DNA of 64,000 nt from NCBI GenBank assembly GCA_028875225.1, contig JAPPFB010000018.1, positions 2,237 to 66,236 of the forward strand, written 5' to 3'. This DNA comes from Chloroflexota bacterium. GTDB lineage: Bacteria > Chloroflexota > Dehalococcoidia > Bin125. Under the pieces are notes generated by a model, which worked only from the letters and a program-made list of their open reading frames with translations, was not told the DNA's origin and searched no databases. The position numbers and the translations under genes are program-made. Positions 13,958-63,582 of the stretch are shown one piece after another; the first letter of the stretch is position 1, and every line of letters starts with the position of its first letter.

Positions 13958-14182
13958 ATGGCGAACGATACGCTCGACGTGGTTCAAGGCGGATTTCCCC
14001 GCTGCGCGCAGTGTGAGAAGGGTGTGTTAGTGCCCCTCTCCGACTTCGGCGGCCAAGGGGCGGCGGTGCACTTCAAAGCCTGGGTCTGCACCGACCCCAA
14101 GTGCCTCTTCAACCTCAAGATCCGCAACGGCGACGTCTACCTCAACGAACCGATCTACGACGGCCGCGACGACCGCCGCTAA
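13958..14182 (+). CDS. Small zinc-ribbon protein (CxxC...CxxxxC)
   Basis: Internal ATG of track ORF 13934..14182 with GGGAGA RBS 9 nt upstream. Two Cys pairs (CAQCEK, CTDPKC). Confidence 0.45.
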   Translation: MANDTLDVVQGGFPRCAQCEKGVLVPLSDFGGQGAAVHFKAWVCTDPKCLFNLKIRNGDVYLNEPIYDGRDDRR

Positions 14183-14188
14183 CAGACA

Positions 14189-14308
14189 AGAGCTCCCCCT
14201 CTGGGCCAACTGGGCCGAAGGGCCTGAGGGGGCCCGCTTTCGCCTGTCCTTCGGGATACGGGGAGCCCGCTCAGTCGCTCCGCGACAGCTCCCCCGGAGG
14301 GGGAGCTC
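14189..14308. repeat. Inverted pair of ~45 bp palindromic repeat units (MITE-like composite)
   Basis: Left arm GAGCTCCCCCTCTGGG...CTGAGGGGGCC, ~30 bp spacer, right arm is the reverse complement (...GCTCAGTCGCTCCGCGACAGCTCCCCCGGAGGGGGAGCTC). The same unit recurs at 7 other loci. The 25 nt AACAGACAAGAGCTCCCCCTCTGGG also occurs at 52069-52093. Confidence 0.8.
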
Positions 14309-14333
14309 TTGATCGTCGAGACATGGAGCAGCA

Positions 14334-15473
14334 ATGAACATCGCCAGCGTCGACGTCTTTCCCATCATGTCCTGGCGACCCCACCTGTTCGTCACTGTCA
14401 CCGCCGACGACGGAACCTACGGCGTTGGTGAGTCGGGCTTGAGCTGGCAGGAGAAGCCGATCGCCGCCGCCATCGAGCGTTTCTCGGAACTGGTCGTCGG
14501 CGAAGATCCGATGCGCACCGAGCACCTCTGGCAGCTCATGGCCCGTGCCTCCTTCTTCCCGGCCGACCGGATCAACTGCGCCGCCATCTCCGCCATCGAC
14601 CTCGCGCTCTGGGATCTCAAGGGCAAGCTGCTGGGACAGCCCGTCTACAACCTGATTGGCGGACTCGTCCGCGACCGGATTCACTGCTATCCGCACAACG
14701 AAGGCGAGGACGACCCTCCCAAGCTGATTGCTGACATCGAGCGCACCGTCGCCGACGGCTGGCGTTTCGCCCGCTGGGGCTTCAGCGGCACGACCGGCGA
14801 GGCCTTTGACCCGTCCGATGCCGTGCGCAAGTCCGTCCGCGCGATCGAAGCCGTCCGCTCCCACTTCGGACCAGAGTTGGAACTCTGCGTCGATGTCCAC
14901 ACCCGCATCGATCTGCCAGACGCACTCCGCTACTGCCGCGCGGTCGAGGACTTCCATCCGTTCTTCATCGAGGACGCACTCCGCTCCGAGCGACCCGAGT
15001 CATATCGGCGCCTGCGCGAGCGCACCAGCGTCCCGCTCGCCGCCGGCGAGCAGTGGTTCACCAAGTGGGGTTTTGCGACCGCGATCGAGGAAGAGCTGAT
15101 CGACTACGCCCGCATCGACCTCTGTCTGGTCGGCGGCTTCACCGAGGCGCTCAAGATCGCTCGCTGGGCCGAGACGCATCACATCCAGATCGTCCCGCAC
15201 AATCCGCTCGGACCGGTCTCATCGGCCGCCGGCGCGCACCTGACCCTCGCCGCCGCCAATGCCGGAGTGCTCGAAATGGCCAAGGAGCCGGGCACGAACC
15301 TCCAGGATGTCTTCCCCGAGCAGACCCCGTTCGAGCGCGGCCACGCCCTGCCCACCGACCAGCCCGGTTGGGGTATCACATTCGACGCTGAAGCTGCATC
15401 CAGGTATCCAGAACCGGGCGTCGGCTACGCGCCGATGCTGCATCGCCGCGACGGATCATTCACGAATTGGTGA
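14334..15473 (+). CDS. Enolase-superfamily dehydratase (mandelate racemase/muconate lactonizing enzyme family, D-galactonate/mannonate dehydratase-like)
   Basis: 379 aa. MR/MLE N- and C-domain motifs ([15 protein letters not shown], metal-binding D/E/D ladder). Confidence 0.8.
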
Positions 15474-15497
15474 GGGCTGGTAGTAAGCTGAATCGGT

Positions 15498-15574
15498 CGG
15501 GGAGTGGCGCAGCCTGGCAGCGCGCTTCGTTCGGGACGAAGAGGTCGGAGGTTCAAATCCTCTCTCCCCGACCA
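15498..15574 (+). tRNA. tRNA-Pro (anticodon CGG)
   Basis: 77 nt cloverleaf folded by hand. Acceptor CGGGGAG/CTCCCCG, D stem GCGC/GCGC, anticodon stem CTTCG/CGAAG with loop TTCGGGA (anticodon CGG), T stem GGAGG/CCTCT, T loop TTCAAAT, discriminator A plus encoded CCA. Confidence 0.9.
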
Positions 15575-15803
15575 TCTCAATTCTCCTGTTGACGCTCCGA
15601 TTACAGTCCTTACGCCGTCGCTAAACAGCGCCGATCCTGCCGGCGTACTCTCGACCTCGAACGACTGAGATGCGCTTGACATACAGATTCGTTGGACGAC
15701 ATGAACTCGCGACGCACCAGCATCCTTCCCGACGCCATCTTTCTCACCATCGCCATCATTGCCCTGACGCTCCTGATCGTCACCTGACCGGCCCAGAACC
15801 GGC

Positions 15804-62015: not shown

Positions 62016-62055
62016 CACCTTCCTCCATCAACGAGGTGACCCGAGCGGAAGACAA

Positions 62056-62527
62056 GACCTCACCCTCCGGGGGAGGTGCCCCGAAGGGGCGGAGGGGGCC
62101 CGACGAGCCGTCAGCCATGCCGAAACGCGATCGCGAGTACGCGCCACGAGAGCAGATCGAATTCGCCAGGAAGCTGCGCGCAAACGCCACCGATGCGGAG
62201 GTGCTTCTCTGGGGTCGACTCCGACGTCGCCAGGTCGCCGGGTGTCGGTTCCGACGTCAGCATCCGATTGGTCGGTATGTGGTCGACTTCGCATGCGTCT
62301 CTGAGCGTCTTGCCATCGAGCTTGACGGCGGTCAGCACGCTGAGCGACAGAAACGTGATGAAACCAGAGATCAAGAACTGAGAGCCAAGGGCTACCGCAT
62401 TCTCCGCTTCTGGAACCACGAAGTCCTTGGTGATCTTGACGCTGTCATAGACCGTATTGCGGCCGAATTGCCCTGACGGGCGGGCCCCCTCAGTCGCTTC
62501 GCGACAGCTCCCCCGGAGGGGGAGCTC
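62056..62527. mobile_element. Candidate small TIR element: DUF559 nuclease gene bracketed by inverted copies of the ~45 bp palindromic repeat
   Basis: Left unit GACCTCACCCTCCGGGGGAGGTGCCCCGAAGGGGCGGAGGGGGCC (62056-62100). Right unit in opposite orientation GGGCCCCCTCAGTCGCTTCGCGACAGCTCCCCCGGAGGGGGAGCTC (62482-62527). The enclosed DUF559 ORF has its ATG 16 nt after the left unit and its stop 5 nt before the right unit. The composite repeats elsewhere look like the same element with the interior removed. Confidence 0.45.
62117..62476 (+). CDS. DUF559 (Vsr-like / restriction-endonuclease-fold) protein
   Basis: Internal ATG (MPKRDREYAPREQIEFARKLRANATDAEVLLW...GCRFRRQHPIGRYVVDFACVSERLAIELDGGQH...KGYRILRFWNHEV) has the typical DUF559 layout. 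Track ORF 62036..62476 adds 27 repeat-derived codons. Confidence 0.75.
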   Translation: MPKRDREYAPREQIEFARKLRANATDAEVLLWGRLRRRQVAGCRFRRQHPIGRYVVDFACVSERLAIELDGGQHAERQKRDETRDQELRAKGYRILRFWNHEVLGDLDAVIDRIAAELP

Positions 62528-62531
62528 TTGG

Positions 62532-63461
62532 CTACCCCAGACACCCACTCAGGAAGTTGTTCACCCGATTCGTCGCGTCCATCCCCGCCGGCGTGGGGAA
62601 GCCGTCGAAGCCGTGCGGCGCGTCGGGGAAGACGTGCAACTCCGTCTCGTGACCCGCGGCTTGCCAGCGAGCGGCCATGAACAGTGAGTCGTCCAGCAAC
62701 GGATCCAGCGTCCCGACGGTGAAGATCGCCGGCGGCATGTCCGACAGATCGGCCAGCAGCGGGGTCACGTCGGGCAGCTCGCGCAGTTCCGGCTCCTCCG
62801 GCGTCACGTAGTGGTCGATGAACCACTCCATGATCGGCGACGAGAGAATCAGGTTGCGCTCGCCCCACAAACGCGCAGATGGGGAGTGGCGCAGGTCGTA
62901 GACGCCGTAAGTCAGCGCCGCGCCCTGGAAGCCGGTGTAGCCGTGGTTGTCGCGCATCCTGAGCAGCGTCGTCGCCGAGAGATGACCGCCGGCCGACTCG
63001 CCGCCGATCGTAAAGACATCGGTGCCGAACTCCGATTGCCCGTTCTCGACCAGCCAGACGGCAGCCGCCTCACAGTCCTCGTTCGGCGCCGGATACGGAT
63101 GCTCCGGCGCGAGCCGGTACCCGACCGAGACGACCGCCTGTTGCGTCGCCTGGGCGCGACCCCAGAGGCGCTCGTCGGCGCCGTCGTGCGAGCCGATCAC
63201 CCAGCCGCCGCCGTGGATGTGGAGGTACACGCCGCGCACGACCGGCGGGATGAAGACGCGCACGGGAATCTCACCCGCCGGCCCCGGCACCGACCGCTCC
63301 TGCGCGATGTCGTCCAGCTTCGCCGGCGGCGGACCGAATGGCCCGCCTTCAGCCAGCACATCGCGCAACTCTTGCGCCTCCATCTCGTGCCAGGGCTTGC
63401 CCTGCGCCGAGGCCTCCTCGATCATCACGTTCAACGCCTGCGTCTGTGGGTCGGGTCTCAT
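62532..63461 (-). CDS. Alpha/beta-hydrolase fold-3 esterase/lipase (HSL family)
   Basis: HGGGW oxyanion motif and GESAGGHL nucleophile elbow. Real start probably MRPDPQTQ (about 63461), because the first 16 track codons translate the repeat. Confidence 0.8.
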   Translation of the reverse strand: MRPDPQTQALNVMIEEASAQGKPWHEMEAQELRDVLAEGGPFGPPPAKLDDIAQERSVPGPAGEIPVRVFIPPVVRGVYLHIHGGGWVIGSHDGADERLWGRAQATQQAVVSVGYRLAPEHPYPAPNEDCEAAAVWLVENGQSEFGTDVFTIGGESAGGHLSATTLLRMRDNHGYTGFQGAALTYGVYDLRHSPSARLWGERNLILSSPIMEWFIDHYVTPEEPELRELPDVTPLLADLSDMPPAIFTVGTLDPLLDDSLFMAARWQAAGHETELHVFPDAPHGFDGFPTPAGMDATNRVNNFLSGCLG

Positions 63462-63482
63462 GGTGTGCTCCTGCCTGACGAA

Positions 63483-63527
63483 GACCTCCCCCTCCGGGGG
63501 AGGTGTCACGAAGTGACGGAGGGGGCC
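63483..63527. repeat. Single ~45 bp palindromic repeat unit
   Basis: GACCTCCCCCTCCGGGGGAGGTGTCACGAAGTGACGGAGGGGGCC, near-identical to the unit at 17114. Confidence 0.8.
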
Positions 63528-63582
63528 TACACTGCTACCTCCGCGAACTCACGAAGTATAGATATCCGACTTGGAGAGGCCG

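Follow-up and report, generated by a model that had tools for sequence, protein, structure and literature searches.

BoxC repeats, which were rediscovered as PIT elements and later as TM_ECO, are class II intrastrand triplex motifs (PMC4666352, Holder et al. 2015; Hoyne et al. 2000, cited therein). TM_ECO units fall into types A and B, their inverted pairs always combine A with B, and they are strictly intergenic with no rule of orientation (PMC4666352). The isolated TM_ECO strand forms a stable triplex in vitro, as judged by circular dichroism and nuclear magnetic resonance, PIT elements showed neither promoter nor terminator activity, an association with mobile elements was not found, and TM loci are associated with local instability (PMC4666352). 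BoxC/PIT/TM repeats have been catalogued for about 30 years without a function, a cognate protein, or a reason for their abundance and patchiness. The last dedicated study found, that of Holder et al. 2015, went no further than to conclude that such repeats mark loci prone to instability (PMC4666352). Twelve short, structured repeats occur in a stretch of 64,000 nucleotides from a Chloroflexota bacterium (Dehalococcoidia; GenBank assembly GCA_028875225.1, contig JAPPFB010000018.1, positions 2,237 to 66,236), referred to below as the window, and two of them bracket a gene for a nuclease of the DUF559 family. Judged from their sequence, these units appear to be a local family of the BoxC/PIT/TM class, in a variant that carries a hairpin in its second loop. 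It seems somewhat probable that, within this class, the bracketing DUF559 nuclease is the cognate protein of the repeats, much as RAYT is for REPINs.

Each unit of the window family reads, in order, leader, N1, CTCCCCC, three nucleotides, GGGGGAG, N2, TG, a second hairpin, N, N3, and GAGGGGGC. Hairpin 1 consists of the invariant arms CTCCCCC and GGGGGAG together with the N1:N2 pair, and 99.5% of its cells are paired. The third segment, GAGGGGG, is the mirror image of the purine arm, and the symmetry includes the adjoining base, such that GGGGGAG-N2 and N3-GAGGGGG mirror each other; N1 pairs with N2, and N3 is not in a complementary register. The combinations of N1, N2, and N3 are C/G/G (87 copies), G/C/T (51), and T/A/A (7), together accounting for 145 of 153 copies, and they can be read as the triplets G.GC, T.CG, and A.AT. 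The relation between N1 and N3 is obeyed by 94.5% of 55 distinct sequences, compared to 52% in shuffles, and collapses once the partner column is slid. For an antiparallel purine-motif triple helix to form, purine tracts that mirror each other must lie beside a pyrimidine/purine hairpin. T.CG has its use in the antiparallel motif. As a documented triplet, it is cited for the parallel motif (PMC2532714). The trailing run of five Gs, with which the originally described fold ended, is the third strand of a mirror repeat rather than an appendage. Pairing of the 3′ G-run with the C-run was considered and rejected, as the segments are mirror images and are not complementary in register, and loop 1 is variable.

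Loop 1 measures 3 nt, and its sequence is variable. Loop 2 spans 15–25 nt and is itself a hairpin of 3–10 bp, variable in sequence, with its pairing kept. Pair 22–32 of this second hairpin is UA in 20, GC in 17, CG in 12, and GU in 3 cases, and pair 24–30 is CG in 25, GC in 21, and AU in 8, which amounts to three Watson-Crick types at each of two stem pairs; the covariation score is 0.267, compared to 0.057 in shuffles. The loop is C-GNA-G in 113 of 153 copies, and such triloops are typical of exceptionally stable DNA mini-hairpins. The predicted folding energy is −15 to −18 kcal/mol per unit, with z about −3 (ViennaRNA). The fold that had been proposed from the letters alone, with hairpin 1, a small hairpin 2, and a G5 run, was correct, hairpin 2 shows compensatory changes, and ViennaRNA predicts both hairpins and only those two. 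The window is syntenic over 56.8–63.5 kb with a complete Dehalococcoidia chromosome from a metagenome-assembled genome (OZ247431.1, relative L083), at 78–88% identity, and one protein encoded in the window has an identical NCBI entry from a Chloroflexota metagenome-assembled genome. At one orthologous unit (window 57002–57053, L083:180–225), the stem of hairpin 2 counts 9 bp in the window but 5 bp in L083, and the two stem sequences are unrelated; here, hairpin 2 appears to have been exchanged or rebuilt while the putative triplex core stayed constant. In another relative, L201, an orthologous unit has changed from g/c/T to t/a/A.

A looser blastn search combined with a motif scan found 12 unit copies, of 44–52 nt, at 9 sites in the window, compared to 0 expected by chance, and the repeat family reported in the original prediction is real. 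Consensus 44-mers gave 5 and 3 matches at up to 3 mismatches, solely at places noted earlier, with 0.00 expected (100 shuffles). Eight of the 12 copies are perfect, and the defects lie in those at 14190, 14265, 57002, and 62056. There are four solo copies, three tail-to-tail inverted pairs, and two copies (62056, plus strand; 62484, minus strand) around the DUF559 gene. The four singles and three inverted pairs had been placed correctly to within 1–2 nt in the original prediction; the copies at 62056 and 62484 had not been listed, 9 sites take the place of 8, and the spacers of the pairs, first given as 27–30 bp, measure 31, 29, and 32 bp. Every copy lies outside Pfam-supported coding sequence, which bears out the claim of strictly intergenic placement, and the reported proximity to MFS transporter starts also holds, with two copies directly upstream of MFS genes. 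The units and the gene that they bracket are the following, with A-type and B-type denoting N1/N2/N3 of g/c/T and c/g/G, respectively.

14190..14233, plus strand: decayed A-like unit, left of an inverted pair; pyrimidine arm and third segment intact, purine arm degenerated to GGGCCAACTG
14265..14308, minus strand: A-type unit (g/c/T), right of the pair, spacer 31 bp; third segment GAGCGGG (one mismatch); 26 bp upstream of an enolase-superfamily gene starting at 14334
17115..17158, plus strand: perfect B-type solo unit (c/g/G) between divergent MFS (minus) and amidohydrolase (plus) genes
35341..35384, plus strand: A-type solo unit between the minus-strand flavin reductase/DnaJ and MFS_3 genes, antisense to both
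49800..49843, plus strand: B-type unit whose hairpin 2 is GCCCCGTAGGGGC, forming the left half of a B+A pair arranged tail to tail
49873..49916, minus strand: A-type unit, right half of this pair, with a 29-bp spacer; genes for aminopeptidase N (minus) and a hydrolase (plus) diverge from the pair
52078..52121, plus strand: A-type solo unit whose hairpin 2 is GCCGCGAAGCGGC, in sense orientation between two genes of the plus strand
57002..57053, plus strand: A-like unit, left half of a pair; hairpin 2 is long (GTCCTCGACGCAGTCGAGGGC), and hairpin 1 contains a single T.G wobble
57086..57129, minus strand: B-type unit, right half of this pair, with a 32-bp spacer; genes for a CoA-transferase (minus) and a short-chain dehydrogenase (plus) diverge from the pair
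62056..62099, plus strand: B-type unit with one C-to-A mismatch in the pyrimidine arm, ending 17 bp before the DUF559 start codon
62117..62476, plus strand: DUF559 (Vsr-like, PD-(D/E)XK-type) endonuclease gene, 119 aa, with inverted units on either side whose third segments face the gene
62484..62527, minus strand: A-type unit, beginning 7 bp past the DUF559 stop codon
63483..63526, plus strand: B-type solo unit upstream of an abhydrolase_3 gene, with a presence/absence polymorphism among relatives

As in BoxC/PIT/TM_ECO, a pyrimidine arm, a loop, a purine arm, a second loop, and a mirror purine segment follow one another in the same order. The A and B types, the A+B inverted pairs, the strictly intergenic placement, and the lack of a fixed gene orientation are likewise shared, and 15 of 19 tail-to-tail pairs combine A with B. 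Both occur in tens to hundreds of copies per genome with a patchy distribution, and the homopyrimidine/homopurine hairpin has a stem in the same range of 6–15 nt. The original prediction that no such family had been named is, therefore, wrong at the level of kind, as the architecture is that of the BoxC, PIT, and TM_ECO intrastrand-triplex repeats; for the core sequence itself, the literature search returned no match. There are, however, differences. The TM_ECO pattern is CCCTCNCCC-N3-6-GGGNGAGGG-N3-GGGNGAGGG, whereas the window core is CTCCCCC/GGGGGAG/GAGGGGG, with 7–8 triplets. Loop 2 of the window family, at 15–25 nt and with its own hairpin, exceeds both the N3-6 and N3 loops of TM_ECO and the 1–6 nt allowed by the ITxF loop criterion, and this limit renders the hairpin-bearing variant invisible to the ITxF search. 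The window core has its hosts in Chloroflexota, Alphaproteobacteria, and Acidimicrobiia, and BoxC/TM_ECO is the E. coli relative. Triplex formation has been demonstrated in vitro for TM_ECO only, and the window units are known here from sequence.

A scan for the exact pattern, with one genome per species, found the units in at least 119 stretches over several groups, indicating that the family extends beyond the window and is not local low-complexity DNA. Among the matches listed, about 22 stretches belong to Chloroflexota, many to Caulobacterales and Sphingomonadales, six to Acidimicrobiia, and single ones to other phyla. The 5′ leaders are lineage-specific: copies from Chloroflexota carry AAGA(G/C), those from Caulobacterales (A)GAT(C/G) or AGCT(C/G). 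A leader shared by several copies had been described for the window, consistent with the occurrence of ACAGACAAG at both 14190 and 52078. An A-type 42-mer, GCTCCCCCTCTGGGGGAGCTGTCGCGGAGCGACTGAGGGGGC, is identical between Caulobacterales (L006, L029, L037, L045, L048, L060, L062, L070, and L086) and Dehalococcoidia (window 35341, L082, and L090), and this cross-phylum identity may reflect horizontal transfer or constraint.

The 119-aa open reading frame (ORF) between the units at 62056 and 62484 is a DUF559 protein (PF04480; E 8e-41, 138.7 bits, where the gathering score is 20.6). Among solved structures, 3HRL (E 3e-38) and that of the homing endonuclease I-Bth0305I (3R3P, E 9e-7) come nearest to it, and NCBIfam and PADLOC added only weak Vsr, homing-endonuclease, and ProA hits. 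Invariant DUF559 residues D57, E68, D70, H74, D81, and R84 form the predicted catalytic core, and in this core as well as in protein family the window protein matches Vsr and I-Bth0305I. Vsr, however, is tied to a cytosine methyltransferase and cuts T/G mismatches, and I-Bth0305I resides in a phage group I intron; for neither have triplex-type repeats been reported at the flanks. No promoter or terminator consensus was found at the DUF559 element. The literature searched, which left subscription journals mostly outside, yielded no paper linking DUF559 or YcjD, its E. coli counterpart, to triplex repeats.

The association of DUF559 with the units is not confined to the window. About 0.9 Mb of loci that were fetched by the repeat alone contained five further DUF559 genes, each between or beside units. 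Conversely, 80 metagenomic DUF559 loci were fetched by the protein alone and searched within 200 bp of the gene with a strict triplex-unit detector, which in the window calls only the 8 perfect units. The detector called a unit within this distance in 66 of the 80 loci, and 30 of 70 had one on either side of the gene. Upstream units were on the plus strand in 47 and on the minus strand in 19 cases, downstream units on the minus strand in 56 and on the plus strand in 19, a bias which means that the third segment faces the DUF559 gene. Control ORFs had any unit nearby in 4 of 22 and 6 of 44 cases (14–18%), and none had units on both sides. In most of the 80 loci, the two flanks are inverted repeats of each other, with one architecture and many different sequences (for example GGGAGAGGG/GGGTGAGGG, GGGGGAGGG/GGGAGGGGG, GGGAGGGG/GGGGAGGG, and GGGGGAAGG/GGATGGGGG), and several of these flanking families also have a hairpin in loop 2. 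A comparison that is free of the mirror rule was made in DUF559 loci with other unit families, where a copy of the purine arm was sought within 40 nt downstream of 320 mirror-asymmetric pyrimidine/purine hairpins: a mirror copy alone was found in 103 of the 320, compared to a direct copy alone in 15.

The units also affect how the genes next to them are annotated. N-termini that translate the repeat had been suspected in several ORFs of the window, and as the Pfam domain of long unit-crossing ORFs starts only at residues 73–76, this N-terminal inflation is real. The annotated C-terminal tails of the DUF559 homologues P0052, P0069, P0095, and P0017 (such as PSPPQGGEG and PLPEGEG) are translated flanking palindromic units, indicating that the ORF-calling artefact is widespread in databases.

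Orthologues of the window DUF559 gene, with 67–79% protein identity, occupy the same syntenic site in four other assemblies, between genes for an AMP-binding enzyme and an abhydrolase_3 protein, and the arrangement is always B (plus), gene, A (minus). The ratio of nonsynonymous to synonymous substitution rates (dN/dS) is 0.07–0.18, with synonymous sites near or at saturation, and the flanking units are 93–100% identical (0–3 of 44 nt differ). The low dN/dS, the fixed site, and the near-identical units point to a long-resident, selected, single-site gene and to units under strong constraint or concerted evolution. A vertically inherited gene under purifying selection together with constant repeats is also the published RAYT/REPIN pattern, here with an unrelated enzyme.

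Several observations concern changes at the unit sites themselves. A comparison of L205 (2917–3000) with L204 places the end of synteny precisely at the DUF559 gene's upstream unit, where an ABC-transporter permease gene replaces the AMP-binding gene and the downstream side is unchanged; this break fits the reported instability of such loci. In L083 (5300–5730, the orthologue of window 62020–62100), the upstream B unit and about 125 bp of neighboring sequence form three tandem copies with a period of about 171 bp, and the tandem copies include the last codons of the upstream AMP-binding gene. The array looks like a local amplification at the unit. The unit at 63483 is not present in the orthologous intergenic region of four relatives (L083, L201, L202, and L204).

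The second gene upstream of DUF559 is of the RmuC family (57922–59346, minus strand) and keeps its syntenic place in L201–L204, a proximity that may be coincidence. A GC-rich hairpin, CGCCCCCCCGTAGGCGGGGGCG, at 60220–60250, past a YscW-like gene, is without the mirror segment and is not a member of the family. A tRNA-Pro (CGG) at 15498–15574 (plus strand), with which no unit is associated, is the sole Rfam or ARAGORN match in the window; at gathering thresholds, no Rfam family matches the units. A plasmid origin of the window was considered and rejected, as the window is not plasmid-like.

In E. coli, where the TM_ECO units reside, ycjD is annotated as DUF559 and is single-copy in 3378 of 5426 complete genomes. 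On its 3′ side, a degenerate unit lies at the stop codon and a TM_ECO unit about 170 bp downstream; Table S2 of Holder et al. places this TM_ECO unit between fabI and ycjD, with no comment on ycjD (PMC4666352). In K-12 (L200:7040–7420), the interval from ycjD to the TM_ECO unit holds a diverged second copy of the gene's final ~50 nt, which suggests a past duplication or the remnant of another DUF559 cassette. In a set of 60 E. coli genomes, sampled evenly through the ranking of a concatenated ycjD+unit query, the 37 ycjD-positive genomes had 14–31 matching places (median 22), compared to 1–16 (median 6) in the 23 ycjD-negative ones. Published unit counts are 19–30 in phylogroups A/B1/C, 1–2 in B2, and 6–15 in D/E/F, and B2 carries eefRABCD where A/B1/C carry ycjD. 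This contrast fits maintenance of the units by the nuclease.

REPIN-RAYT systems (Bertels & Rainey PMC3116915, PMC5581495; bioRxiv 10.1101/2022.05.22.493013) offer a close parallel to such a partnership. In both cases, short structured intergenic repeats are dispersed as singlets and inverted doublets, a single-copy, vertically inherited nuclease gene under purifying selection is flanked by its own repeats, and a lineage without the gene has fewer repeats. The enzyme differs, being a DUF559/Vsr-like endonuclease here and a Y1/HUH transposase there, and the window units have a mirror-repeat third strand and lack the GTAG or CGTC tag of REP families (PMC3733652). MITEs also resemble this arrangement in that short non-coding elements with inverted ends coexist with a longer, gene-carrying form between the same ends. 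In contrast to MITEs, no target-site duplication is seen at the one polymorphic site (63483, in genomes only ~85% identical), what lies inside the short pairs bears no relation to the gene-bearing element, and the enclosed gene is neither a transposase gene nor multi-copy. The resemblance to REP or MITE elements that had first been proposed thus stands in so far as the units are dispersed and intergenic, with conserved ends, and are present in relatives; membership of either class is unsupported, given the lack of a target-site duplication at that site and of a RAYT-like gene in a search of the window and 119 loci with a weak query. The notion that the short pairs are internal-deletion derivatives of the gene-bearing element was dropped, because no DUF559 fragments lie next to other units.

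From the observed architecture, covariation, nuclease-repeat linkage, orientation, conservation, and vertical inheritance, we infer how DUF559 might act on the units and how copies might be made. One DNA strand would fold into the CTCCCCC/GGGGGAG hairpin, and GAGGGGG would lie back in the major groove of this hairpin as an antiparallel purine-motif third strand, with the small, very stable C-GNA-G hairpin taking the place of BoxC's short second loop. The units are scattered between genes as solo copies and as tail-to-tail A+B pairs, and one A+B pair encloses the single, vertically inherited DUF559 gene. The nuclease may recognize the folded single-stranded unit by its shape rather than by its exact sequence, and nick at it. 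Replication or repair by the host would then copy, convert, or delete units, which would make the units uniform and hold the nuclease gene and its repeats together. Sequence-specific cognate recognition was dropped in favor of recognition by shape because DUF559 clades and unit classes do not co-cluster. A more tentative extension, possible and held with less confidence than the cognate role itself, is that triplex repeats and DUF559 represent a second, RAYT-independent nuclease-repeat partnership, widespread across phyla, in which a Vsr-like nuclease reads the intrastrand triplex and maintains, homogenizes, or multiplies the repeats.

Several explanations in which DUF559 has no such role can be set beside this. 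That the units are classical REP/REPIN sequences moved by a RAYT (Y1/HUH) encoded elsewhere, with DUF559 as just another intergenic landing place, is improbable. Short, palindromic, intergenic units, solo and in inverted doublets, whose structure is kept by compensatory change would agree with it, and the strand bias of the units against GC skew, only marginal (39:22, p = 0.04), might agree with a mechanism that acts on single strands and is coupled to replication. A RAYT-like ORF was, however, not found in the window or in the 119 loci, using a weak query; the missing tags and the mirror third segment, which is not a REP feature, also argue against it, as does a DUF559 linkage far above background. 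Equally, the units and DUF559 might constitute a free-standing homing-endonuclease cassette, in which empty A+B pairs are cut by the nuclease and then receive the gene through recombinational repair, the units serving as homology arms. This would account for the tail-to-tail A+B architecture shared by the short-spacer pairs and the DUF559-containing pair, and would be in keeping with the nearest functionally characterized relative being the homing endonuclease 3R3P and with the weak PADLOC "homing endonuclease" hit. It is nevertheless very improbable, since five diverged relatives have the gene at one and the same conserved syntenic site, E. coli has it in single copy, other pairs are free of DUF559 fragments, and homing would spread the gene rather than the 25-fold more numerous units. 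Most doubtful is an action of the units as RNA, as 5′ or 3′ untranslated structures that stabilize mRNA, terminate transcription, or sequester the Shine-Dalgarno-like GGAGG. The strong predicted hairpins, the GGAGGTG inside B-type units, and the position of several copies 25–100 nt from start codons could be explained in this manner, but solo copies occur in sense, antisense, and divergent-promoter positions, there is no Rfam match, T-run, or terminator consensus, and the C-GNA-G triloops are typical of stable DNA mini-hairpins. RNA reportedly does not form purine-motif triplexes, and no promoter or terminator activity was seen for PIT elements (PMC4666352).

A number of points weigh against DUF559 as the cognate protein of triplex repeats. 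For TM_ECO, Holder et al. detected no triplex in duplex DNA or by in vivo dimethyl sulfate footprinting (PMC4666352). DUF559 proteins are not tied to these repeats by enzymology or genetics, and the sole functional study found counts a DUF559 protein of Caulobacter among the Vsr-type mismatch endonucleases and links it to cytosine methylation. Caulobacter and sphingomonad DUF559 proteins beside the same unit family are only 41–45% identical to the window protein, and the class of the flanking units does not follow the similarity among DUF559 proteins (52.6% vs 52.1% identity, permutation p = 0.07). Neither DUF559 remnants in the spacers of short pairs nor pseudogene fragments next to other units were found. 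To our knowledge, a PD-(D/E)XK-type nickase has no strand-joining activity, and we know of no precedent for the copying step. At 63483, about 33 nt are replaced and no target duplication is seen, in a comparison of genomes that are only ~85% identical. Finally, up to ~16 units persist in E. coli genomes that lack ycjD, and phylogeny confounds the contrast seen in this species, which rests on few independent events. Some of these points would favor an explanation that is unlikely, and less so than those considered above, namely that the units are structural DNA maintained by the host (for example, a replication or recombination pause site, or a nucleoid or supercoiling element) and DUF559 an ordinary Vsr-type repair enzyme, with the flanking units insulating or regulating a potentially toxic gene, or the nuclease removing unit structures. 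It would accommodate the Caulobacter protein, which is DNA-damaging, SOS-induced, Vsr-like, and linked to cytosine methylation, the purifying selection on DUF559 at a fixed locus, as for a housekeeping gene, the persistence of units in ycjD-negative E. coli, the failure of protein clades and unit classes to co-cluster, and the tie of TM loci to local instability. It leaves unexplained, however, the roughly fivefold excess, across phyla, of units of one architecture, one orientation, and many sequences at DUF559 compared to other genes, as well as the lowest unit numbers in the E. coli lineage without ycjD.

The linkage to a nuclease is the unexpected element here, the repeat class itself being already known. 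This link to one small nuclease family makes the old question of BoxC experimentally testable. In practical terms, the units inflate ORF calls, and hairpin-bearing variants escape existing searches for triplex motifs. If DUF559 is indeed the partner of these repeats, BoxC, which has stood unexplained since the 1990s, would gain a cognate protein and a life cycle, and the REPIN-RAYT idea of vertically inherited intragenomic replicators would extend to an unrelated enzyme. DUF559 would then also be a candidate for a natural reader of triple-helical DNA.

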